Shown one piece after another: positions 4,361 through 54,322 of a DNA stretch of 64,000 nucleotides; position 1 is the first letter of the stretch, and every line of letters begins with the position of its first letter. The stretch lies in sequence record NC_055781.1; one strand, written 5' to 3'. The stretch comes from Escherichia phage p000v. The notes beneath the pieces were generated by a model that saw only the letters and a program-made list of their open reading frames with translations, did not search any database and was not told the origin of the DNA. The position numbers and the translations under genes were made by a program.

Positions 4361-5029
4361 ATGATCGATAAAGACTATATTGAAGAGTTACGTGCTCTTT
4401 CTGATAAAAAGGAAGCCAAAGCTAAACTGTTTGAATATGCGGAACAATTTGGCATTAGTGTTAAGAAAACAAAATCATTCGATAATATTGTTATTGATAT
4501 CGAAGAAGCTCTTAACGCACTGGCTGATGAACCGTTACCTGAAACTGATGGATTATCTATCACCGATTTAATTACTGCCGCAGATGATGTGGACGGTGTT
4601 AATTTCACCAACGAAGAAGTTAAAGAAGAAGCTATTCTGTTGTTTGATTCTCCAACAGACCAAGTTGAAGTATTAGAAGTTGTCGAACAAGAAAAAGAAT
4701 TCGACCATGATAAATTCGAAGAAGCAATTACTCAGGTTGTTGAATCTGAAAAAGAGCCTGAGTCAGAGGTAAATAAAGAAGTAAAATTTGTTCTGCCTGA
4801 AAATTTTAGTCCTACACTCATTAAATTAGGCAAAGGCCCAGGGTATGTTACTGTTCCTTGGTGGATTTATCAATGGATAGCCGAAACCCCAGATTGGAAA
4901 TCTCGCCCAACTAGTTTTGTGCACGCTTCTGCCCACCAAACATTATTTAGCTTAATTTATTATATTAATCGCGATGGATCAGTTCTAATTCGTGAAACTC
5001 GTAATTCTTCTTTTGTAACATTAAAATAA
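4361..5029 (+). CDS. inh: Inh-like protein (inhibitor of prohead protease), acidic
   Basis: 222 aa; acidic central region; located between uvsW and hoc as T4 inh. Assignment by position and composition. Confidence 0.6.
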   Translation: MIDKDYIEELRALSDKKEAKAKLFEYAEQFGISVKKTKSFDNIVIDIEEALNALADEPLPETDGLSITDLITAADDVDGVNFTNEEVKEEAILLFDSPTDQVEVLEVVEQEKEFDHDKFEEAITQVVESEKEPESEVNKEVKFVLPENFSPTLIKLGKGPGYVTVPWWIYQWIAETPDWKSRPTSFVHASAHQTLFSLIYYINRDGSVLIRETRNSSFVTLK

Positions 5030-5038
5030 GGATAACTT

Positions 5039-6169
5039 ATGGCTTTTACAGTTGATATAACTCCTAAAACACCTACTGGAGTTATAGATGAGACTAAGCA
5101 GTTTACTGCTACTCCCAGTGGTGAAACTGGAGGTGGAACTATTACCTATGCATGGAGTGTAGACGATGCTCCTCAAGTAGGATCGGCAGAAACTTTTGAT
5201 TACGTGTTAAAAGGACCCGCTGGAACAAAAACAATTAAAGTTGTTGCAACAAATACTATTCCTGATACTGATGCCGAAACGGCAGAAATTACTACGACTA
5301 TCACGGTTAAAAATAAAACTCAGTCAACTACTTTGGCAGTAACTCCCGATAGTCCTTCAGCTGGAGTAATTGGAACCCCAGTTCAATTTACTGCTGCCTT
5401 AGCTTCTCAACCGGCTGGAGCGTCTGCTACGTATCAGTGGTATGTAGATGATTCACAGGTTGGTGGAGAAACTAACTCTACATTTAGCTATACTCCAACT
5501 ACAAGTGGAGTAAAAAGAATTAAATGTGTAGCTCAAGTAACTGCGACAGATTATGATGCAAAGGAAGTTACTTCGAATGAAGTATCATTAACGGTTAATA
5601 AGAAGACAATGAATCCACAGGTTACATTGACTCCTCCTTCTATTAACGTTCAACAAGATGCTTCGGCTACATTTACTGCTAATGTGACTGATGCTCCGGA
5701 AGAAGCGCAAATTGCGTATTCATGGAAGAAAGATTCTTCTCCTGTAGAAGGGTCAACTAATGTATATACCGTTGATACTTCATCTGTTGGAAGTCAAACT
5801 ATTGAAGTGACTGCCATCGTTACTGCAGATGACTATGATAGCAAAACTATTACAGCAGAAGGTCAAGTTCAAGTGACTGATAAAGTTGCTCCGGAACCAG
5901 AAGGTGAATTACCTTATGTTCATCCTCTTCCACATCGTACTTCAGCTTACATCTGGTGCGGTTGGTGGGTTATGGATGAAATCCAAAAAATGACTGAAGA
6001 AGGTAAAGATTGGAAAACTGAAGATCCAGATAGTAAATACTACCTGCATCGTTACACTCTTCAGAAGATGATGAAAGACTATCCGGAAGTTGATGTTCAA
6101 GAATCACGTAATGGATACATCATCCATAAAACTGCTTTGGAAACTGGTATCATCTATACATATCCATAA
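5039..6169 (+). CDS. hoc: Hoc, highly immunogenic outer capsid protein (Ig-like repeats)
   Basis: 376 aa (T4 Hoc length); three or four repeated Thr/Val-rich Ig-like segments and a conserved C-terminal capsid-binding region (WCGWWVMDEIQKM...). Confidence 0.85.
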   Translation: MAFTVDITPKTPTGVIDETKQFTATPSGETGGGTITYAWSVDDAPQVGSAETFDYVLKGPAGTKTIKVVATNTIPDTDAETAEITTTITVKNKTQSTTLAVTPDSPSAGVIGTPVQFTAALASQPAGASATYQWYVDDSQVGGETNSTFSYTPTTSGVKRIKCVAQVTATDYDAKEVTSNEVSLTVNKKTMNPQVTLTPPSINVQQDASATFTANVTDAPEEAQIAYSWKKDSSPVEGSTNVYTVDTSSVGSQTIEVTAIVTADDYDSKTITAEGQVQVTDKVAPEPEGELPYVHPLPHRTSAYIWCGWWVMDEIQKMTEEGKDWKTEDPDSKYYLHRYTLQKMMKDYPEVDVQESRNGYIIHKTALETGIIYTYP

Positions 6170-6465: not shown

Positions 6466-6713
6466 GTTTTGCACAGGAATTAAGAGAAAGGGCTCTGGCC
6501 ACTAAAGCCAATTTGTTGAGTGATTTTATTACTAACTTCTCTGTGATGGCAGAGAAAGCCGCTGACAAAGGCCAGACACAATTCACGTACTATCCATCAA
6601 AGAATGATTTAACTATCACCGAGCAAGTCGGTCAATGGCTTCGTGATAACGGCTTTCAGTACAAAATTAATCACGACCAACGTGATGGTCATTGGATAGA
6701 AATCAAGTTCTAA
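6462..6713 (+). CDS. Hypothetical protein
   Basis: 83 aa ORF, ATGA start/stop overlap with upstream ORF. Confidence 0.5.
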   Translation: MSFAQELRERALATKANLLSDFITNFSVMAEKAADKGQTQFTYYPSKNDLTITEQVGQWLRDNGFQYKINHDQRDGHWIEIKF

Positions 6714-6742
6714 TATGCTTTACATTTTTTGATGGTATAATG
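6714..6742 (+). promoter_or_regulatory. Candidate MotA-dependent middle promoter for rnlB
   Basis: ATGCTTTA (MotA box) followed about 13 nt later by TATAAT with an upstream TG; about 90 nt upstream of rnlB ATG. Confidence 0.4.
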
Positions 6743-6832
6743 AATCTAGGTTCTATCCATTCAAATTAAACATCTGGTCAGAGACAGAGTCTCTGCTAAT
6801 TATTTTGATATTATTATTTATAATGGTGATTT

Positions 6833-7840
6833 ATGTTTAAGAAATACAGCAGTCTTGAAAACCACTACAACTCTAAGTTTATTGAAAAACTCTACACTAA
6901 TGGTTTGACTACTGGTGTTTGGGTAGCACGTGAGAAAATCCATGGGACTAACTTCTCGTTAATAATTGAACGTGACAACGTCACATGCGCCAAGCGCACA
7001 GGCCCTATTCTTCCAGCAGAAGATTTTTATGGTTATGAAATCGTACTCAAGAAGTATGATAAGGCTATTAAAGGTGTTCAAGAAGTCATGGGCAGTATTT
7101 CAACTTCAGTGCCAGTGACATATCAAATCTTTGGTGAATTCGCTGGTGGTGGAATTCAGAAAGGTGTTGACTACGGTGAAAAAGATTTCTATGTATTCGA
7201 TATCATCATAAACACGGAAAGCGGTGATACTTATTACATGAGTGATTACGAAATGCAAGATTTCTGTAATGAATTCGGTTTTAAAATGGCACCAATGCTT
7301 GGTCGTGGAACATTTGATTCTCTTATCATGATTCCAAATGACCTTGATTCCGTCTTAGCCGCTTATAACGCTACGGCATCGGAAGACCTTGTCGAAGCAA
7401 ATAATTGTGTATTTGATGCTAATGTTATTGGTGATAATACGGCAGAAGGATATGTTCTGAAGCCTTGTTTCCCTAAATGGCTGCCAAACGGTACTCGTGT
7501 AGCTATTAAGTGCAAGAACTCTAAATTCAGTGAAAAGAAAAAGTCTGATAAGCCTATTAAAACTCAGGTTCCATTAACTGAAATTGACAAAAACTTGCTT
7601 GATGTTCTAGCTTGTTATGTTACATTAAATCGTGTTAACAATGTGATTTCTAAGATTGGGACTGTAACGCCAAAAGATTTTGGCAAAGTGATGGGATTGA
7701 CTGTTCAAGATATTCTGGAAGAAACTTCTCGTGAAGGTATTGTATTAACATCATCTGATAATCCAAATCTTGTTAAGAAAGAATTAGTCCGAATGGTGCA
7801 AGATGTTCTGCGTCCTGCATGGATTGAATTAGTATCATAA
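6833..7840 (+). CDS. rnlB: RNA ligase 2 (Rnl2)
   Basis: 335 aa (T4 Rnl2 334 aa); nucleotidyltransferase motif I KIHGTN with the active-site Lys; ligase motifs downstream. Confidence 0.9.
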
Positions 7841-9582: not shown

Positions 9583-11151
9583 TTAGATGCCTTTTACATA
9601 TACACGGCGGAAGTAAGCGTTCTTACCAAGGCTGTTCAGGATAGACGGCATACCGGACTGGATGCGAGCACCTGGAGCCTGCAGGGAACTTTCAGCAAAC
9701 GGGTTAACACCGATACCGTAACGAGTTTTAAAGCCCATTACCGGCTGGAAGTTCTTAGGATCGGAACCACGCAGTGGGGTAAGTGCAACGTAAGGAGCAT
9801 AGTAAATACCTGCATCCATTTCGTTAGCGCCTTTGTAACCAACGGTGAAGTAATCCTGTTTAGCATACTGGTCGATGTATACGCGGTATTTACCACCAAG
9901 TACACCGGCAAATACAGACTTAGTAGTGTCGGTATTAAAACCAGAAGCCAGACCCTGTGCAGCGTAAGAAATACCAGTATCAACTGAAGCCAGTACGTTA
10001 ACTACGTTACGGGAAGCGATAATGAAGTTACCTTCACCACGGCCGGTTTGACGAGCAATTTCAACTGCTTCTTTATCAATCTGGAACAATAGAGATTTAA
10101 AGCTTTCACCGGCCCAACGAGCACCACGGATATCAATCGGGTCCTGGAAGTCAAATACACCAGCTTTAGAACCCGGAGTCAGGGTCATACCAGATTTACC
10201 AACCTGTGCTGAGTAGTTAATCCAATCAACAACTTCACGGTTGATTTCTAGCATAATTTCTGTAGCCAGAATACCGCTCAGTTCAGCATCAGCATCCATA
10301 CCGTGTACTGCACGGAGGTCTTGTGCTAATTCGATAGAGTAAGCAGCTTTCAGCTGGCGAGATTTAGCTTCGATAACTTGTTTATCGATACGGAAGCCCA
10401 TTTCATTCCATGGGTTATCGGTAGAACCGTTGAAACCTTCCTGGAGTTCAGCGATAGAAGTAGCCATACCTTCAGCGATTTCTACCAGTGCACCAGCTTC
10501 CATTTGTTTCTTAACTTCTGCATCTAATTTAGCAGCATCAGTTGCACCGGCATCGATTGTTACTTGAACAGAAGCTTGCAGATATACAGTACCAGTTTCC
10601 TGGAAGAAGTGAGTATAGATATCACCTACTGTGGTTTGTGTGCTAGCAGCCAGAGCTGGGAATTTCTTAGCAGCACCCTGACCAGAGAACATTGCATCCG
10701 GAGCATACATCGGATGGAAAGCTTCTTTAGCGCCAGCAGCGATAGGGTCTTTACCATATACTGCACGGAGAGCAAATACCTGACCGGTCGGGCTGTTCAT
10801 AGGCTGAACACCACAAATATCAAAAGCGATCAGATTAGGAATAGCACGACGAACCATACCCATAACTGCAGGCCCAATTTGGGTTACTGCACCAGAGGTT
10901 TGACCTGCTGCGATGTTCTGAGCATTATAACCATGGTCACCACCAATTTCAGCTTCGGTCAAGAAAGAACCAAATGCCTGAGCGATTTTCTCGTCTTTAT
11001 ATTCAGGGGATACTTCGAAATCTTTTTCCTGGTTTTCGAAGATTTTAGCGATAATAGCCTGCTTGCTATTAGCGATTTCCGGCAGGCCTTCACCTTCCAG
11101 CAGTTCTTTCCATTTGTCTACGAGCTGAGCTTTAGTTTTGATAGTAGTCAT
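9583..11151 (-). CDS. 23: Major capsid protein gp23
   Basis: 522 aa; N-terminal propeptide MTTIKTKAQLVDKWKELLEGEG... with LxE protease sites; unmistakable T4 gp23 sequence. Confidence 0.97.
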   Translation of the reverse strand: MTTIKTKAQLVDKWKELLEGEGLPEIANSKQAIIAKIFENQEKDFEVSPEYKDEKIAQAFGSFLTEAEIGGDHGYNAQNIAAGQTSGAVTQIGPAVMGMVRRAIPNLIAFDICGVQPMNSPTGQVFALRAVYGKDPIAAGAKEAFHPMYAPDAMFSGQGAAKKFPALAASTQTTVGDIYTHFFQETGTVYLQASVQVTIDAGATDAAKLDAEVKKQMEAGALVEIAEGMATSIAELQEGFNGSTDNPWNEMGFRIDKQVIEAKSRQLKAAYSIELAQDLRAVHGMDADAELSGILATEIMLEINREVVDWINYSAQVGKSGMTLTPGSKAGVFDFQDPIDIRGARWAGESFKSLLFQIDKEAVEIARQTGRGEGNFIIASRNVVNVLASVDTGISYAAQGLASGFNTDTTKSVFAGVLGGKYRVYIDQYAKQDYFTVGYKGANEMDAGIYYAPYVALTPLRGSDPKNFQPVMGFKTRYGIGVNPFAESSLQAPGARIQSGMPSILNSLGKNAYFRRVYVKGI

Positions 11152-46992: not shown

Positions 46993-47157
46993 ATGACTAC
47001 TTTAATTATTTGGTTCGATGAAAATGAAGAAACATACTGTGTGAATATTGGTGAAAGCCCAATGCCTGAATTTGAATCCTCAGATAAAAACTCTGTTGTA
47101 TCTTGGGCTGAAGGTTATAAAGCAGCTAAAGGTGACGTTGAAATAATTTACATCTAA
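46993..47157 (+). CDS. Small hypothetical protein (54 aa), not in ORF track
   Basis: ATG 46993 preceded by the duplicated 45-nt leader with SD GAGGAG; MTTLIIWFDENEETYCVNIG...; stop TAA 47155-47157. Confidence 0.5.
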   Translation: MTTLIIWFDENEETYCVNIGESPMPEFESSDKNSVVSWAEGYKAAKGDVEIIYI

Positions 47158-47203
47158 GTAAGTTTATGTTATAGTAGTTCTATCAAAACAAGAGGAAAAC
47201 AAA
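47147..47203 (+). promoter_or_regulatory. Decayed early promoter cassette (TTTACA-17-TGtTATAGT) + leader
   Basis: TTTACA at 47147-47152, 17-nt spacer, TATAGT preceded by TG; leader CTATCAAAACAAGAGGAAAACAAA-ATG; upstream IR arm missing compared with the full cassettes. Confidence 0.5.
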
Positions 47204-47431
47204 ATGGCTAAAGTTAGTATTGATGTCGTTGATTATGAATACACAGAAGAAGTTATTCGCAACCGTCACCCTGAAGTTCGTATCGATTCAGTACAAGATT
47301 CCAAGTTCTGGACAACTGAGCTTAATCTGAGTGGTCCTTATGAAGCTGTTAAGAAGTTCATGGTTGAAGAATACTGCGAAGGCATGCACCCCGAAGACGC
47401 CAAGTTTTATGTCAATTTGATTAAAAAATAA
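47204..47431 (+). CDS. Hypothetical protein
   Basis: 75 aa ORF with cassette leader and SD GAGGA. Confidence 0.55.
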   Translation: MAKVSIDVVDYEYTEEVIRNRHPEVRIDSVQDSKFWTTELNLSGPYEAVKKFMVEEYCEGMHPEDAKFYVNLIKK

Positions 47432-47501: not shown

Positions 47502-48095
47502 ATGAACACACTGAAGAAACTTGTTGAATTCATCCGCACTAAACTGGGTACTGCTATGGCTAAAAATCTGACTGTAGAAGAACAGTATAACGCAGCTGCA
47601 GATAAGTTGATTACCCAAATCAAAGAACTAAAAACGGCTTCTGTTAAATCTATTAACGAAGAAAAACGTATTCGCGAACTTGTTAATGAAAAGAACAAGC
47701 AAGCCGCTTCTAAGGAACGTGAAATTCGTAAGCTCCTGGCTGAAGGACAAGATGTTACCATGCATGCTAAGCTTGGTCTTCTGTATCGTCGAACTGCCGA
47801 ACAACTTAATACAAAAGCTGACGGTTATGCCGCTATGCGAATTGAAATTGCTCGTAAGGTGGTTGAACTTGATGATGCTCGTCAGAACCTGGCAATCAAA
47901 CTCGAATACATTCGTGAAACTCGAGCAGCCAATGCCCTTGGTATCTCTACGGCTGATGATGTGATTGAAATTGCTGCACTGACTAAGGTTGATATCGAAG
48001 ACACTCTGACTCGTGTCGAAACATTCAATGGCACTCCAGCCGGTGTCGAAACCACTTCTGCTGATGTACAAGAATATATTAACTCTTTGAAATAA
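47502..48095 (+). CDS. PspA/IM30-like coiled-coil protein
   Basis: Start at M6 of the track ORF; 197 aa, almost entirely helical with heptad-like charge pattern ([33 protein letters not shown]...[14 protein letters not shown]) resembling phage-shock protein A. Confidence 0.45.
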
Positions 48096-48103
48096 AATAA
48101 TAC

Positions 48104-48126
48104 GGAGGACTCCGGTCCTCCTTTTG
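48104..48126 (+). terminator. Rho-independent terminator
   Basis: GGAGGAC-TCCG-GTCCTCC hairpin followed by TTTTGG. Confidence 0.6.
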
Positions 48127-48144: not shown

Positions 48145-48747
48145 ATGCGAAACCAAAATAATGATATTGACTCAATGTTCGAAGAGTTCCGAGATAAGGT
48201 AAATCCACCTACGTCTTTAGTTGATTCATTACGATATGTTGCAACTGGGCGTAAATGGTACTGGTCGTCTTCTTATGAGACCACCGAGAAAACAGCTAGC
48301 CATAGCAGAAAATCTTTATTGGCCCCGGGTATTATGATTCATGATATCGGAGCTATTGCTAAACTAGTTGCAGACCATGATATTAGATTCACTGATTTCG
48401 TTGCTCCTACGTGGTCTGTTTGTTGTTTAAACACTGAATGGGAATATATCAGCGAACGCTCTGAAGATTATTATGGTTTTAGAGATAAGCTTCTGAGGTC
48501 TAATATGTTTTATATCGATACAGAAGTTCTAGTCGATAATAAAAAATATTACTTTACGTTAATCATCGATTCTGAAACTATGTATGAAGGCAAGCCTTTG
48601 CTTAAAAGAGTTGATGCTTTAAGTGCTATTGATGCGCTTTATGAAACTATGGTTGTTAGTCCTAATTTCACTAACAATTTAATCCTTGAGCAATTTATTA
48701 TGGAATGTAGAGAATATGTCAAAGCCAACCCTATACATGCCAAGTAA
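48145..48747 (+). CDS. Hypothetical protein with C-terminal QFIMECR motif
   Basis: Start at M8 of the track ORF (SD AAAGGAG); 200 aa; C-terminus ...LILEQFIMECREYVKANPIHAK shares a motif with 48716, 51356 and 52349. Confidence 0.55.
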   Translation: MRNQNNDIDSMFEEFRDKVNPPTSLVDSLRYVATGRKWYWSSSYETTEKTASHSRKSLLAPGIMIHDIGAIAKLVADHDIRFTDFVAPTWSVCCLNTEWEYISERSEDYYGFRDKLLRSNMFYIDTEVLVDNKKYYFTLIIDSETMYEGKPLLKRVDALSAIDALYETMVVSPNFTNNLILEQFIMECREYVKANPIHAK

Positions 48748-49108
48748 GCCCTGGGCGTATGAATACAAGCGTAAATTAATCCCAAATGAAGTACTATTTG
48801 GCCCTATTTTAGCTTTAGCATTTTTAATCTTTATGATTATAGGAGCTGTTTTAGATTCTAGTGAAGTTATATCGTCTGATGCAGCATTTTCATTAATGTT
48901 CGTCGCACCACTTATTATACCGTTTTTATTAATGCCTATTAACTGGATGGGATATTGGTACCAAGGACGTCATCACAGAGCCCGATTAAGAGAATGGAAA
49001 GTTCAGTGCGCAAAAGCCCAAGCTCAGTATGATGAAGCTGTTAAAAAGTATGAATATGAAGAAGCTATGGAATTCGTTAAGGAAATAAGATGCAAAAGCC
49101 TTAACTGA
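48716..49108 (+). CDS. Membrane protein (two TM helices) with C-terminal EFVKEIRCK tail
   Basis: Start uncertain (ATG 48716 or 48737; track ORF begins with TTG at 48686); TM segments ILALAFLIFMIIGAVL and FSLMFVAPLIIPFLLMPI; helical C-terminal tail. Confidence 0.5.
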   Translation: MSKPTLYMPSKPWAYEYKRKLIPNEVLFGPILALAFLIFMIIGAVLDSSEVISSDAAFSLMFVAPLIIPFLLMPINWMGYWYQGRHHRARLREWKVQCAKAQAQYDEAVKKYEYEEAMEFVKEIRCKSLN

Positions 49109-49206
49109 ATTTATGCTGTTTACGCTTCTCAAATGATTAGTTATAATGAACTCCTAGCTAAACGTGAAAATGAAACAATCGAAAACTTTATTAAGGAATG
49201 TAGAAA

Positions 49207-49512
49207 ATGAGTAAGATTATTGAAATTAAAGTACCAGAGTTTAATGATGCCAAATCCGCTTCAGATGCAATTTATAAACTTCTGAATCAAGCTGAACGTA
49301 TCGAAGAAGAAGCAACAAAGATCGCAGACCAATACGCTGTATCGTTTTCTGTAGGTGATTATGGTAGCGGTCGTACTTATTATCCTAAGGGTGAAATCGT
49401 ATCCCAGTGGATGAAAAATGAAATTGAAAATAATGGTGGCGACGTTAAGCGTGAAGGTAATGGTTACGTTATTACTGAAGGTGCTTGGGTTTCGTCTTCT
49501 GCGTTGTGCTAA
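49207..49512 (+). CDS. Small protein, member A of tandem triplicated family (C-terminal GAWVSSSALC)
   Basis: 101 aa; shares helical N-terminus and C-terminal G-W-V-S/A-S-S-x-x-C motif with 49522 and 49804. Confidence 0.6.
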   Translation: MSKIIEIKVPEFNDAKSASDAIYKLLNQAERIEEEATKIADQYAVSFSVGDYGSGRTYYPKGEIVSQWMKNEIENNGGDVKREGNGYVITEGAWVSSSALC

Positions 49513-49521
49513 GGAATCATT

Positions 49522-49794
49522 ATGTCTAAAGAACAAACCGAACTGGCTGAAGCCGTAGCAAAAATCTATGCAGCTATTGAGGCTGCCAAAGAAATTGCTA
49601 ATAAACAAAACACAACATTCGACTTGTATCCAGCTTATGGCATGGGTGGAACCTATCATTCACCAGGACATCTTAAAGCCGATCTTGAACGTTGTACAAA
49701 AAACGGCTATGCTGAATGGGCTGACGTTTACCAATACGACTACAACTTGAGCCTTGAAGATGGCGGTTGGGTTGCATCTTCTCACACTTGTTAA
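49522..49794 (+). CDS. Small protein, member B of tandem triplicated family (C-terminal GGWVASSHTC)
   Basis: 90 aa; paralogue of 49207 and 49804. Confidence 0.6.
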   Translation: MSKEQTELAEAVAKIYAAIEAAKEIANKQNTTFDLYPAYGMGGTYHSPGHLKADLERCTKNGYAEWADVYQYDYNLSLEDGGWVASSHTC

Positions 49795-49803
49795 GGAAAT
49801 CAT

Positions 49804-50001
49804 ATGTCTCGTGAATTAGATTGTGCTGTACGTACAGCAGTAGCTGCCCTAGAAAACCTGTTCCAGATTGCAACCGAAGAGCGTGAAGAAGTTACATTGT
49901 GGATTGAAGATAACGCAGGTCTGAATCTCCAGGACGCAATCTCGTTATCAAATAATAGTATTACTGTTCAAGGCTGGGTATCATCTAGTTATTCTTGCTA
50001 A
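49804..50001 (+). CDS. Small protein, member C of tandem triplicated family (C-terminal QGWVSSSYSC)
   Basis: 65 aa; paralogue of 49207 and 49522. Confidence 0.6.
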   Translation: MSRELDCAVRTAVAALENLFQIATEEREEVTLWIEDNAGLNLQDAISLSNNSITVQGWVSSSYSC

Positions 50002-50005
50002 AACA

Positions 50006-50063
50006 GTTTACAACAAGATAGGGCTATGTTATAGTAGTCCTATCAAATTAAATGGAGTCTACA
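50006..50063 (+). promoter_or_regulatory. Early promoter + stem-loop cassette (PeSL-like)
   Basis: GTTTAC (50006-50011), TGTTATAGT inside the inverted repeat ATAGGGCTA...TAGTCCTAT, leader CTATCAAATTAAA, SD GGAG. Confidence 0.6.
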
Positions 50064-50303
50064 ATGATTTATTATGAAAGTATCGGAACCGAAGTAGTTG
50101 CTAAAACTATTACTCGTGAAAAGTTTGCAAAGATATTCGATATGCGTTATAAAAAATCTGAACACAAAGGCATCCGATTCGAAGATGCGCACTGTACAAT
50201 TTGCCCTTATAATGAAGACATAAACGGTACAATCGTTCCATTGGTAGAGGCTTCACATGATGACCTCTGGGATGAATATAATATCGCATGTCGCGAAATT
50301 TAA
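50064..50303 (+). CDS. Hypothetical protein
   Basis: Start at M5 of the track ORF (SD GGAG 6 nt upstream); 79 aa. Confidence 0.5.
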   Translation: MIYYESIGTEVVAKTITREKFAKIFDMRYKKSEHKGIRFEDAHCTICPYNEDINGTIVPLVEASHDDLWDEYNIACREI

Positions 50304-50328
50304 GTAATCTAAATTCGAGGAAATTATT

Positions 50329-51285
50329 ATGATGTTAGTTATTGGTTCTCGTGCACTTCACTATCACGGCCTTATTGATTCTAGCGCTATCAAAAATAGT
50401 GATTGGGACTTTATTGCGGACCAAGGTTCTTGGAATGTATTCAAAAATCAAATGATGGGCGTATATGTTCACCAAGATAACCCTGATGTCCAAGTTTTCA
50501 AATGCTTCCATAATGGACGCGAAACTCATTTTGAAGCATACATTGTTCCGGCAATCACTAATGTCCGTGAATTAGTCGGTGAACTCACTCCTGAAGATTT
50601 CACGTCTTCTTATGACCTTTTAAAATACGCCAAGAAAAATTTGACTAAAGACCGTTTGAACGGGTTTTACTGGGCAACTCCTGAGATGTGTCTTGCAATT
50701 AAGATGTCTCATCGTTTCAAGAAAAATAATCCATTCTTTTTAAAGACTATGAACCATATTCAGTATCTTCGTGGTAAAGGTGTTACACTGAACGATGAAC
50801 TTACTGAAATTATGCTGAAACGCCAGAAAGAAACCTTGAATTATGCTCACCCGGTTCTTGACACTTCTAAAAGCGCATTCTTTAAAGATGACATCTACAC
50901 ATACGATCATGATACTATTCACGAAGCCATTGCACTAACAGACCGTCCAGCGTATACATTTTATATGAAAGATGGTTCTGAAGTCATGACCTCACGCGAG
51001 AAGTTCGAATCATTACCGGAAATGGTCAAATTGGCCGGCGTATACGAAGAATCATGTGTACTAGCATTAGAACGTTCTCAGATTCCTAATAACTTTGAAA
51101 TCCATCCACGTGATAGTTTTATGATAGCTCTTGAAAAGGTCTGTACTTCAATCACGTCAGGCTGGTTCCGTGAGTATGCCTGGGAGAACTATGGCAAAGT
51201 AGTAAGTATGTATCAAAGCTTAGGACATGACGATTATGTCAAACGTTTCAAACAAAATTTCCATATGGTAAAACCTTTCAAATAA
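50329..51285 (+). CDS. Hypothetical protein with Pol-beta-type nucleotidyltransferase-like motif
   Basis: 318 aa; N-terminal LVIGSRALHYHGL...NSDWDFIAD (GS...SDxDF pattern similar to the 63423 protein); rest alpha-helical. Confidence 0.4.
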   Translation: MMLVIGSRALHYHGLIDSSAIKNSDWDFIADQGSWNVFKNQMMGVYVHQDNPDVQVFKCFHNGRETHFEAYIVPAITNVRELVGELTPEDFTSSYDLLKYAKKNLTKDRLNGFYWATPEMCLAIKMSHRFKKNNPFFLKTMNHIQYLRGKGVTLNDELTEIMLKRQKETLNYAHPVLDTSKSAFFKDDIYTYDHDTIHEAIALTDRPAYTFYMKDGSEVMTSREKFESLPEMVKLAGVYEESCVLALERSQIPNNFEIHPRDSFMIALEKVCTSITSGWFREYAWENYGKVVSMYQSLGHDDYVKRFKQNFHMVKPFK

Positions 51286-51297
51286 CTTCACAAAACT

Positions 51298-51355
51298 GTT
51301 TACAACAAGATAGGACTATGTTATAGTAGTCCTATTAAAACACGAGGAGAATATT
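51298..51355 (+). promoter_or_regulatory. Early promoter + stem-loop cassette (PeSL-like)
   Basis: GTTTAC (51298-51303), TGTTATAGT inside the inverted repeat ATAGGACTA...TAGTCCTAT, SD GAGGAG. Confidence 0.6.
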
Positions 51356-51661
51356 ATGAAATTAGGCGAAACCAACCGAATTGGTCTTTTAACAATATTT
51401 GCATCACCTTTTTACGCAGCTCTTTCTGTTGCAGTATTACAAAAGGCTTACGATATGGATGGTGTTCCTGGTTGTATATTCTTATCACCATTTTTGTTAT
51501 TCGTTGGAGCACTGCTATTATACGCCACGACTAGTTTCGACCATAATGTCTGGGTTAATTATAAATGTAAATTGTCTGAAGAAGAACACGCAGAAGCTCG
51601 TAAAAAAGCTATTGAATCTACCAATCTAGAAAATTTCATTAAAGAATGTCGAGGAAAATAA
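51356..51661 (+). CDS. Membrane protein with C-terminal ENFIKECR tail
   Basis: 101 aa; two hydrophobic segments (IGLLTIFASPFYAALSVAVL, CIFLSPFLLFVGALLLYA); C-terminus ...NLENFIKECRGK. Confidence 0.55.
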   Translation: MKLGETNRIGLLTIFASPFYAALSVAVLQKAYDMDGVPGCIFLSPFLLFVGALLLYATTSFDHNVWVNYKCKLSEEEHAEARKKAIESTNLENFIKECRGK

Positions 51662-51662
51662 T

Positions 51663-52349
51663 ATGAATAGTTCTAAAGTGTTTAATAGTCAAGCTCGTGC
51701 AGTAGGTGGTTTCGCTGGCCGTATCAGTAATGATAAAATTAAAAATGAGCCTATGTTCTTCAACTGCGACCTGAAGTTTGCTTTTGATAACGGCGGTCCT
51801 ATCACTCGTTCTTTCATCATGAATCTGCCTGATGACTGGAACACTAATGAAGTAGTATTCGATTCACGTGTTCATATGCTTATGCCTGGCTGGTATCCTG
51901 CTATTCCTGGATACCACCATGACGATGTTCCTCGCCCTGATATTCCAGTCGGCCAACACTTTATTACTGCAGGACAACCTGACTATGATAACCCTCGTTA
52001 CCATTCTGAACATATTCTTGGTCTTGTTAACGCTGACGTGTGTCCTACTCATTTTGCAACAGGAACTGCAGAGTTCAGTCAGATTCCTGATGGCGAACTT
52101 ATCTATCGCCAGTGGCACAAAGAAGTCCTCGAAAAAATCGAAAAAGGCGAACTAGAGAAATGGGAAGCTCCAGACCGTACTCTTCTTCAGTTTGATTGGC
52201 AAACATGGCACACTGGTTCTCGTGCAATTAGTAATGGATGGCGTTGGTTCGGGCGTGTATCTCGTAATACAGACCGAGTTAAAAAGATTACCAATGAAAT
52301 TCGTGTCAACGCTCAAGTTTATCTAGAATTCCCTATGGAAGGCTGGTAA
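51663..52349 (+). CDS. Hypothetical protein
   Basis: 228 aa ORF tightly packed after 51356; His/Asp-rich segment (YHHDDVPRPD...HSEH). Confidence 0.5.
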   Translation: MNSSKVFNSQARAVGGFAGRISNDKIKNEPMFFNCDLKFAFDNGGPITRSFIMNLPDDWNTNEVVFDSRVHMLMPGWYPAIPGYHHDDVPRPDIPVGQHFITAGQPDYDNPRYHSEHILGLVNADVCPTHFATGTAEFSQIPDGELIYRQWHKEVLEKIEKGELEKWEAPDRTLLQFDWQTWHTGSRAISNGWRWFGRVSRNTDRVKKITNEIRVNAQVYLEFPMEGW

Positions 52350-52840
52350 TGATTAACAAAACATATTGGTCTAATATTGACGACGGCAATGAAGGTATTT
52401 CGTACTATTCAGTGGATTGGACAGGATGTCCATCCTACTTAGTGAAACGTATTTGCCAAGAATTTAAAATCGACCAGCCAGCAGGTATTATCGTGAACAG
52501 ATACATTAATGGATATCAACCTATCGATGAAGTAATACGAACAACTCAAGCTGATCTTGAAAAGTTTTTCAATAAGTGCCAATGGATAACAGGATGGATT
52601 ATATTTGTACCGTCGGTATGGTTTTTTAGTACTAAGGTGAGTTCTTTCGGTTTTGTTGATATTATTGCTATCTTATTAGCATCTACTATCGTAAGTATAA
52701 TTGGTGGTATAATTGGTGGAGGTACTATAGGCATCATTATTAATCTTGTTAAAAGTAGTTTACAGGAACGTAAAGACAAGATAAAGGCCAAGAATAACGA
52801 AGTTGAACGTTTTATTACCGAATGCAGGAATTTGAGATGA
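52349..52840 (+). CDS. Membrane protein with C-terminal ERFITECR tail
   Basis: 163 aa; soluble N-domain, two TM segments (WIIFVPSVWFF, FVDIIAILLASTIVSIIGGIIGGGTIGIIINLV), C-terminus ...NNEVERFITECRNLR. Confidence 0.55.
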   Translation: MINKTYWSNIDDGNEGISYYSVDWTGCPSYLVKRICQEFKIDQPAGIIVNRYINGYQPIDEVIRTTQADLEKFFNKCQWITGWIIFVPSVWFFSTKVSSFGFVDIIAILLASTIVSIIGGIIGGGTIGIIINLVKSSLQERKDKIKAKNNEVERFITECRNLR

Positions 52841-53555: not shown

Positions 53556-54044
53556 ATGAATATATTTGAAATGCTTCGTAATGACGAAGGTCTTAGACTG
53601 ACTTTATACAAAGACACCGAAGGCTTTTGGACGATTGGCATAGGCCATTTGGTAACAAAGAACCCGTCTTTAGCCGTAGCTAAAGCTGAACTTGACAGAA
53701 TGATCGGTCGTAAATGCAACGGCACAATTACCCTTGATGAGGCTGAAAAGCTATTTAATGAAGACGTTGATAAAGCCGTTCGTGGAATCTTGGGTAATGC
53801 TAAACTTAAACCAGTGTATGATTCTTTAGACGCGGTTCGTCGATGTGCATTAGTCAATATGGTCTTCCAAATGGGTGTAGCAGGCGTCGCAGGTTTTACT
53901 AATTCTCTTCGTATGCTTCAACAGAAACGTTGGGATGAAGCGGCAGTAAATCTAGCCCAATCTAAATGGTATCGTCAGACACCTAATCGCGCGAAACGCG
54001 TAATCTCAACATTTAAAACAGGAACTTGGAAAGCGTATATATGA
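53556..54044 (+). CDS. e: Endolysin, T4 lysozyme (gene e)
   Basis: Start at M5 of the track ORF (SD GGGAGG); 162 aa; [32 protein letters not shown]... essentially T4 lysozyme with catalytic Glu11/Asp20/Thr26 context. Confidence 0.95.
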
Positions 54045-54322
54045 AAACATATAGTGAATTTTTATCAGAATCTATTCTTAACGAAGCTACCGACACATTT
54101 GCAACTAAGCTAGGTGCAGCTTTGGTTGAAGCGGAAAGTCTATTAGCACGTATTTCTGAACTTGCCAGTAAGATAGATACTCGCAAATTTGAACGTACCA
54201 GTGATATCGTTAAGCTTGAAGCCTTGTTGCGTATGTGCGATAAACCGGAAGAAATCGCTAAGAACGGCTCGTTAATGAAACAACGTCTTGAAAAATATAT
54301 TTCAGGCGCTTCAGAAAAATAG
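54041..54322 (+). CDS. Small protein with CTS-like N-terminus (candidate internal protein)
   Basis: Start at M6 of the track ORF, ATGA overlap with the e stop; 93 aa; N-terminus [10 protein letters not shown]|S (LxE site). Confidence 0.55.

Follow-up and report, generated by a model that had tools for sequence, protein, structure and literature searches.

A short C-terminal motif common to small proteins encoded next to the PspA-like gene e.6 in Escherichia phage p000v and other T4-type phages

A stretch of 64,000 nucleotides (nt) from Escherichia phage p000v (NC_055781.1; hereafter the window) was analyzed, and a short peptide motif was studied at or near the C-termini of four open reading frames (ORFs), labelled A, B, C and D, and of a 25-codon remnant ORF lying among them. 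Between positions 48100 and 52900 the window matched RB69-like (Mosigvirus) T4-type phages at 95-97%, and the gene order was that of T4, namely e.6, e.5, e.4, e.3, more genes, e.2, a gene of 78 amino acids (aa), nudE, e and denV. A, B, the remnant and D were located between e.6 and nudE-e-denV, all on the same strand, and were recognized by hidden Markov model (HMM) matches and synteny as direct homologues of T4 e.2-e.5; on this sequence basis, A is T4 e.5, B is T4 e.4, the 25-codon ORF is a deleted e.3 and D is a full-length e.2. Compared with T4, in which e.2 is broken by two stop codons, the window had e.3 deleted and e.2 full-length, and it carried C as an additional member and an insertion of about 3 kb of genes that separates e.3 from e.2. 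The motif is non-random, confined to the gene cluster adjoining e.6 and conserved across distant genera. The features of the region were collected in Table 1.

Table 1. Features of the e.6-e.2 region of p000v, numbered from the first nucleotide of the window
Feature	Position	Strand	Basis or remark
e.6 homologue, PspA/Vipp1/ESCRT-III-like (predicted)	47502-48095	+	88% identity to T4 e.6; AlphaFold2/Foldseek fold
Intrinsic-terminator-like hairpin and T-run between e.6 and A	48104-48125	+	sequence
A, e.5 homologue, soluble, 200 aa	48145-48747	+	phrog_2607, 1.5e-95; 47% identity to T4 e.5
Motif-coding segment of A (EQFIMECR)	48688-48711	+	ends 4 nt before ATG of B
B, e.4 homologue, two transmembrane segments and charged tail	48716-49108	+	phrog_2604, 1.3e-63
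Variant motif-coding segment of B (MEFVKEIR)	49067-49090	+	last base is first base of e.3 start codon
Hairpin at deletion scar	49070-49112	+	RNA fold -13.8 kcal/mol, z = -2.6
5' stub of e.3, ATG CAA AAG CCT TAA (first four codons and stop)	49090-49104	+	alignment with Mizar and T4 e.3
Early-promoter-like site (TTTACG, 17-nt spacer, TATAAT) inside remnant	49119-49147	+	abuts right end of deletion
Remnant, last 25 codons of e.3, ends ENFIKECRK	49133-49210	+	phrog_2330; stop overlaps next ATG
C, 101 aa, two transmembrane segments, ends ENFIKECRGK	51356-51661	+	phrog_9798
Motif-coding segment of C	51629-51652	+	DNA pattern match
D, full-length e.2-type, ends ERFITECRNLR	52349-52840	+	phrog_2203, 1.5e-55
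Motif-coding segment of D	52805-52828	+	DNA pattern match

The pattern E.F[IVLM].E[CI]R was matched four times in the six-frame translation of the window (nt 48688, 49181, 51629 and 52805), always on the + strand, near an ORF end and within 4.2 kb, while mononucleotide shuffles of the window, from which the expectation was derived, gave a mean of 0.03 matches and a maximum of 1. An initial annotation of this DNA, made from the letters alone, had pointed to a common C-terminal motif in neighbouring ORFs, and our analysis confirmed that the ORFs and the motifs were real and lay where it had placed them. Its statement that all four ORFs end with the motif held for C and D; A has 11 further residues (EYVKANPIHAK), whose codons lie in the overlap of A with the beginning of B, and B has the variant tail MEFVKEIR-CKSLN, in which the Cys is shifted by two residues. 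The consensus was [LIV]-E-x-F-[IV]-x-E-C-R, followed by one to four mostly basic residues, and 28 unique instances were condensed to N/E-x-L-E-x-F-I-K-E-C-R with most of the information in F, I, C and R, the Cys being present in 22 and the Arg in 25 of them. The hydrophobic positions of the motif were -3, 0, +1 and +4, and we infer that they lie on one face of a helix.

In T4, e.5 ends with ...EKFVKECREYVKAITIPSK, e.4 with ...KFVKESRCKSQS and e.3 with ...KEFVIDCRKIK. A scan of the whole T4 genome detected the motif at ORF ends in the e.2-e.5 cluster only (e.5, e.3, the orphan tail of e.2, and a variant in e.4), and a relaxed pattern returned a few chance matches in unrelated genes, for example gp12, SegG and tk. 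The C-termini of T4 rIII (~130814; RHFVVTLK), rI.1 (~59573; EKYLDKVK...) and mobD.3 (~58199) also fitted the relaxed pattern, which is probably chance given three cases against about 0.7 expected; a site of the window at ~61192 was listed alongside them. The search was extended to other T4-like genomes by collecting endings from loci fetched around nudE or e.6, and it bore the motif out, with 2-6 neighbouring motif ORFs in each of the six other genera that were sampled beside nudE and retain the cluster, among them Gaprivervirus, Dhakavirus, Jiaodavirus, Karamvirus and Muldoonvirus. The endings were FITECR, FIKEVR, FIKECK and FIEECR in VR26, FIAECR, FIKECK and FIKECR in Bp7, FIKYCR, FIKEVR, WIRSCR, WIKEMK and FIAKCR in KpV477, FINYCR, FIRMCR, FINDCR, FIAECR, FISRCR and FIQGIR in Enterobacter phage EcL8g, and YIDQCR and FIKYCK in Serratia phage Muldoon. 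In Tulanevirus and Pseudotevenvirus the motif was found only in the e.5-like gene adjoining e.6.

The level at which the motif is conserved was examined on 31 distinct DNA instances. The Cys was encoded by TGC in 13 and TGT in 12 of these, the Arg by CGT (8), AGA (7), AGG (5), CGA (3) and CGC (3), the Phe by TTT (20) and TTC (8), and the Ile by ATT (18), ATC (7) and ATA (1), and the longest identity between two motif copies within the window was 22 nt. Because synonymous codons vary across the instances, selection is judged to act on the peptide and not on the DNA. Conserved junction DNA, as the initial annotation had put it, was correct as an observation, its DNA pattern being matched 4 times in the window against 0.01 expected, but this conservation follows from that of the peptide, with varying codons and at most 22 nt of identity. 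In the e.5-like gene of Pseudotevenvirus the motif was located 26 residues before the stop codon (78 nt from the gene end), and it is therefore not tied to the next start codon. These results bear on the idea that the segment serves translation of the following gene, as a ribosome-binding region, coupling signal or repressor site, with the peptide as a side effect. The Arg codon and the bases after it do provide GAGG or AGGA at a distance of 5-10 nt upstream of the following ATG, stop and start codons overlap as ATGA, and no RNA structure was detected at the motif junctions (z-scores -0.7 to +1.1), as expected for initiation regions. However, only the last one or two motif codons can also act as the Shine-Dalgarno sequence of the gene that follows, while conservation, with synonymous changes, reaches 8-11 codons upstream; the next start codon follows the motif at distances between 4 nt and over 78 nt, and the GGAG site of RegB is absent from the junctions. 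A translational role is accordingly regarded as extremely unlikely.

The 25-codon ORF had been read in the initial annotation as the orphaned C-terminus of a fifth member, and it proved to be a true remnant of e.3. It matched positions 98-122 of the 122 positions of phrog_2330 (5.9e-07), and it corresponded to the final 25 codons of e.3 as present at full length (119-120 aa) in phage Mizar and in T4, differing from the 3' end of Mizar e.3 by one base (...AKRE... in the window, ...ARRE... in Mizar). The 5' stub of e.3 lies inside the end of B, which gives an internal deletion of about 280 nt, and the e.3 sequence resumes exactly at a GTTTACG-N17-TATAAT early-promoter-like site, which may be the reason why the last 25 codons were kept. 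In the hairpin at the scar, the 3' arm is an inverted copy of the tail-coding sequence of B, and the old e.3 start codon is placed in the loop. Among about 136 related records, e.3 occurred both full-length and deleted. Decay was also found in T4 (~67490-67960), where the second transmembrane (TM) segment of e.2 and its tail NNFITECRKLK stay in frame to the nudE start, unannotated; since this stretch continues e.2 in frame beyond two in-frame stop codons, e.2 of T4 is an interrupted D-type gene.

The suggestion that the junctions act as recombination linkers was weighed against these breakpoints. On this explanation the junction matters as DNA, the repeats at gene ends would shuffle, delete and duplicate cassettes, and the peptide would be a passenger. 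One case was consistent with it: VR26 has e.5-e.4-e.3 and Bp7 e.5-e.3, and their junction is placed within a repeat of 16 nt, AARGAGGTTCNNAATG, which precedes both the e.4 and the e.3 start codon in VR26 (VR26 4540-5010 versus Bp7 1760-1900). Orphan tails, too, survive beside downstream genes in the window and in T4. The difference between Bp7 and VR26, however, is explained equally well by unequal crossing-over between tandem paralogues, and none of the other insertions and deletions examined had an end in a motif: the e.3 deletion stops at the promoter-like site, T4 e.2 decayed through in-frame stops, and the 3-kb block between e.3 and e.2 has its breakpoints elsewhere. The variable codons, the limit of 22 nt on identity between copies and the distance of 78 nt from the gene end in distant e.5-like genes also argue against linkers. 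Better candidates for shuffling were present in the same region, namely three 68-nt repeats (47140-47207, 50000-50067 and 51292-51359), each with a GTTTAC...TATAGT early-promoter-like sequence and an embedded hairpin, which flank gene cassettes and fit the published PeSL (promoter-early stem-loop) shuffling cassettes (PMC2839356, PMC4122927). The tail motif resembles PeSL cassettes as short repeated DNA at gene boundaries tied to gene gain and loss (PMC2839356), but it is coding, identical between copies over no more than 22 nt, without a hairpin and conserved as a peptide; it was rejected as a cassette of this type, which calls for an intergenic promoter and stem-loop with at least about 50 nt of identity. 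Taken as a whole, the linker explanation is quite improbable.

Given a motif conserved as a peptide, the relationship among its carriers was evaluated. A single paralogous family, as first proposed, was not borne out, because similarity outside the motif was absent except for a weak one between e.3 and e.4. BLASTP with motif-trimmed proteins gave no cross-family match below E = 0.02 in a database of 30 sequences, and the alignments of C with D and of C with e.3 covered only the last 13-23 residues. By hhalign, e.4 and e.3 were aligned with a probability of 70% (P = 4e-5, 30 columns) over the second TM segment and the juxtamembrane stretch, whereas either of them against D reached only about 1%. 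The e.3 and e.4 proteins share the N-terminus M-x-K-P-x-L, their genes have near-identical sequence before the start codons, and the two probably arose as tandem paralogues. The most fitting description of the tail is that of a short motif common to otherwise unrelated, or unrecognisably diverged, proteins, of which it is the best-conserved part while the rest diverges fast.

Three of the proteins were expected to be small, with two TM helices and a charged tail, and this held for B, C and D in the TM topology check. Hydropathy revealed TM-like windows at residues 27-45 and 57-75 of B and at residues 9-27 and 37-55 of C, and D contained two TM-like segments after a soluble N-terminal domain of 77 residues, its N-terminus being 43% identical to T4 e.2. 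No hydrophobic or TM-like segment was detected in A, which was classified as soluble. The N- and C-terminal parts of B, C and D were rich in Lys and Arg, and the periplasmic loops had about 5-11 residues with 0-1 basic residues; these counts indicate a predicted topology with both termini in the cytoplasm. The common architecture of two TM segments, charged helix and motif was seen in B, e.3, C and D, and not in A or the other soluble carriers, which included the e.5-like proteins, EcL8g 6675-7070 and KpV477 10455-10763. Variable ectodomains, which the initial annotation had supposed, do not exist, because the loops are only 5-11 residues long; the variability lies in the TM segments and the cytoplasmic regions. 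Within D, a motif-like LEKFFNKCQ (52553-52582) was observed at the end of the soluble N-terminal domain, just before the first TM segment, and D may have arisen by fusion of two units that each bore a tail.

No family match was obtained for A, B, C or D in Pfam, NCBIfam or PADLOC, and Pfam at E up to 0.1 gave only sub-threshold matches to Yip1 and PcfK. The assignment to a superinfection-exclusion, lysis-control or anti-defence type found no homology in Pfam, the PHROGs function categories, NCBIfam or PADLOC; compared with Imm, Sp, rI, holins and the PADLOC families, A-D share no homology and no sizeable periplasmic domain. C is specific to Mosigvirus, and its family was narrow: the 7 homologue clusters showed no identity below 74% and came from close relatives of p000v. 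An exhaustive HMMER search with A yielded 3 matches and no distant relatives, and an IMG/VR locus search with D yielded 2 loci. The label "sulfurtransferase" attached to the e.4 homologue in some GenBank records (e.g. phage JK45 1417-1812) was dismissed, being without HMM support.

The gene upstream of A, e.6, was examined by structure prediction. The AlphaFold2 (AF2) model of e.6, with a predicted local distance difference test (pLDDT) score of 75, comprised an N-terminal helix and a long helical hairpin (helices 2-18, 25-80 and 86-145), and a Foldseek search of the PDB with it returned Vipp1/PspA structures as the top 8 matches, then the archaeal ESCRT-III protein CdvB2, with a probability of about 1.0 and E from 1.5e-3 to 5e-2. 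At the sequence level, e.6 had no Pfam match, PspA_IM30 included at E up to 1, and a profile of e.6 against PDB sequences gave weak matches (E 1-2) that were co-linear with Vipp1 (5-139 versus 5-141). For a homologue of T4 e.6, an HHpred match of 99.9% to E. coli PspA (4WHE) has been reported in a genome announcement (PMC7862958). The evidence points to e.6 being PspA/Vipp1/ESCRT-III-like, PspA itself being a membrane-repair protein.

Homologues of e.6 were found in 1,108 phage records, and a motif-bearing e.5-like gene directly followed e.6 in 10 of the 11 e.6-bearing lineages sampled. The pair was kept in three genomic neighbourhoods that differ from one another, and also where e.6 identity falls to 31-35%; in Aeromonas phage AS-gz (FVDYCR) and two Pseudotevenviruses (FIHSCK), where e.6 is 31-52% identical, it was found in other neighbourhoods, with nrd genes. 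Across these lineages the e.5-like proteins were highly diverged, and the motif was their most conserved part. The conserved C-terminus of e.6, ...[ED]-Y-[IL]-x-S-L-K, resembles the tail pattern loosely; mimicry of this C-terminal helix (VQEYINSLK) by the tail was set aside as a weak lead, the helix scoring 3.1 bits on a position-specific scoring matrix (PSSM) of the tail and ranking 8th of 335 ORFs.

We favour, with a probability of roughly 35%, a reading of the tail as a helical docking peptide in the cytoplasm whose shared partner would most likely be e.6. The motif, placed at the end of a charged cytoplasmic helix, would dock all its carriers onto one partner on the cytoplasmic side of the membrane, with e.6 as the candidate. 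The two-TM members (e.4, e.3, C and e.2/D) would be interchangeable membrane anchors or adaptors, roles modelled on those of LiaI for LiaH and of PspB/PspC for PspA, and e.5 would be a soluble partner. The gene set may have grown partly by tandem duplication of a unit reaching from start codon to tail (e.3, e.4), and like DNA would then be found before each next start codon because that unit was duplicated as a whole; members decay easily, as e.3 did in p000v and e.2 in T4.

Several results weigh against docking onto e.6. The link to e.6 comes from gene context, that is, from gene adjacency and the analogy to Psp and Lia, and in Aeromonas phage AP1 e.6 occurs without a motif-bearing neighbour. 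The two-TM proteins matched none of the Pfam families PspB, PspC and LiaI, nor anything in NCBIfam. The near-invariant Cys-Arg pair may speak for chemistry (metal, disulfide or modification) over simple docking of a helix. On the tail PSSM the members scored at least 14.8 bits and the e.6 C-terminus only the value given above. The AF2 model of A, which puts the motif in a helix (residues 179-194), had a mean pLDDT of 36, from four near-identical sequences, and is unusable.

The same hydrophobic stripe and Cys also suit tails that bind one another instead of e.6. Homo- or hetero-oligomerisation would be driven by the heptad-like stripe at -3, 0, +1 and +4 and by the end Cys (22 of 28; Arg 25 of 28), perhaps through metal or disulfide, and the family, soluble e.5 included, could form one membrane complex with a function in exclusion, lysis timing or anti-defence; that several members are always co-encoded and translationally coupled agrees with this. 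Yet 8-11 conserved residues make a short stretch for a coiled coil, conservation between families does not include the helix that precedes the motif, and Pseudotevenvirus and Tulanevirus have one motif protein (e.5-like) by e.6, which therefore has no other tails nearby for pairing. We consider mutual binding unlikely.

The tail was also considered as a signal for processing or turnover, whether as a site of the gp21 prohead protease (I-x-E), a relative of the capsid targeting sequence or a degron by which a host protease would shorten the life of these early proteins. The F-I-x-E of the tail fits the gp21 consensus. The T4 capsid targeting sequence (MKTYQEFIAE) shares E-F-I-x-E with the tail and is encoded in the same genome region, and that of ipII, KTYQEFIAEAR, was the best match to the tail PSSM in T4 outside the family. 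Its score of 10.8 bits, however, was within chance (up to 32 such matches expected in 58,103 positions), below the members, and the N-termini of the other internal proteins scored from 4.8 down to -9.1; a relation of the tail to the capsid targeting sequence was rejected on this ground. The targeting sequence (MKTYxEF[IL]xE, cleaved by gp21) is N-terminal and belongs to soluble capsid proteins, whereas the motif is C-terminal and occurs on membrane proteins, and cleavage after the Glu would take off only 2-4 residues. A processing signal is very improbable.

PspA-family proteins cooperate with small partners in the membrane, PspB, PspC and LiaI among them (PMC11237479). The two-TM proteins of the phages resemble PspB/PspC of E. 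coli and LiaI of B. subtilis in their small size, their place in the inner membrane, the cytoplasmic helix at the C-terminus and the position of their genes next to that of a PspA homologue; they differ in having no sequence or HMM similarity to them, and in that up to six phage proteins, soluble ones included, share one C-terminal motif. Full-text literature searches on e.3, e.4 and e.5 found nothing, and for the link between e.6 and PspA they found the one genome announcement cited above. The genes are known hypothetical genes of T4, and the motif and its association with a PspA-like gene are not described in the literature searched.

Other features of the block were recorded. Three tandem small soluble paralogues of phrog_899 (49207-49512, 49522-49794 and 49804-50001) carry [GA]-W-[VI]-[SA]-S-S-x-x-C at the very C-terminus and represent a second family of the block defined by a C-terminal motif; five such genes were found in VR26 and two in EcL8g. 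The 228-aa gene between C and D (51663-52349) shows conservation out to Aeromonas phage AP1, in which its copy (5247-5933) lies directly upstream of e.6, and the Mizar record annotates an HHpred similarity to hydroxylase. A small ORF between e and denV (54041-54322) starts with the capsid-targeting signature of T4-type internal proteins.

About one third of the T4 genes are without a function, the e.2-e.8 block among them, and a conserved peptide tag in 5-6 genes beside a PspA/ESCRT-III homologue makes a single testable module of these hypothetical proteins. Should docking onto e.6 not take place, the motif would still be a clean handle on the common partner of the tails. Should it take place, theirs would be the first adaptor code of any viral ESCRT-III/PspA-type protein, with consequences for the question of how T4 maintains an energised host membrane in long infections and in lysis inhibition. 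It is conceivable, though doubtful, that T4-type phages encode a Psp-like membrane-maintenance system of their own, in which an e.6 polymer is combined with changeable adaptors through an F-I-x-E-C-R code; in that case, by gaining, losing and duplicating adaptors the phages would adjust the place and time at which the e.6 polymer acts on the host inner membrane during infection.

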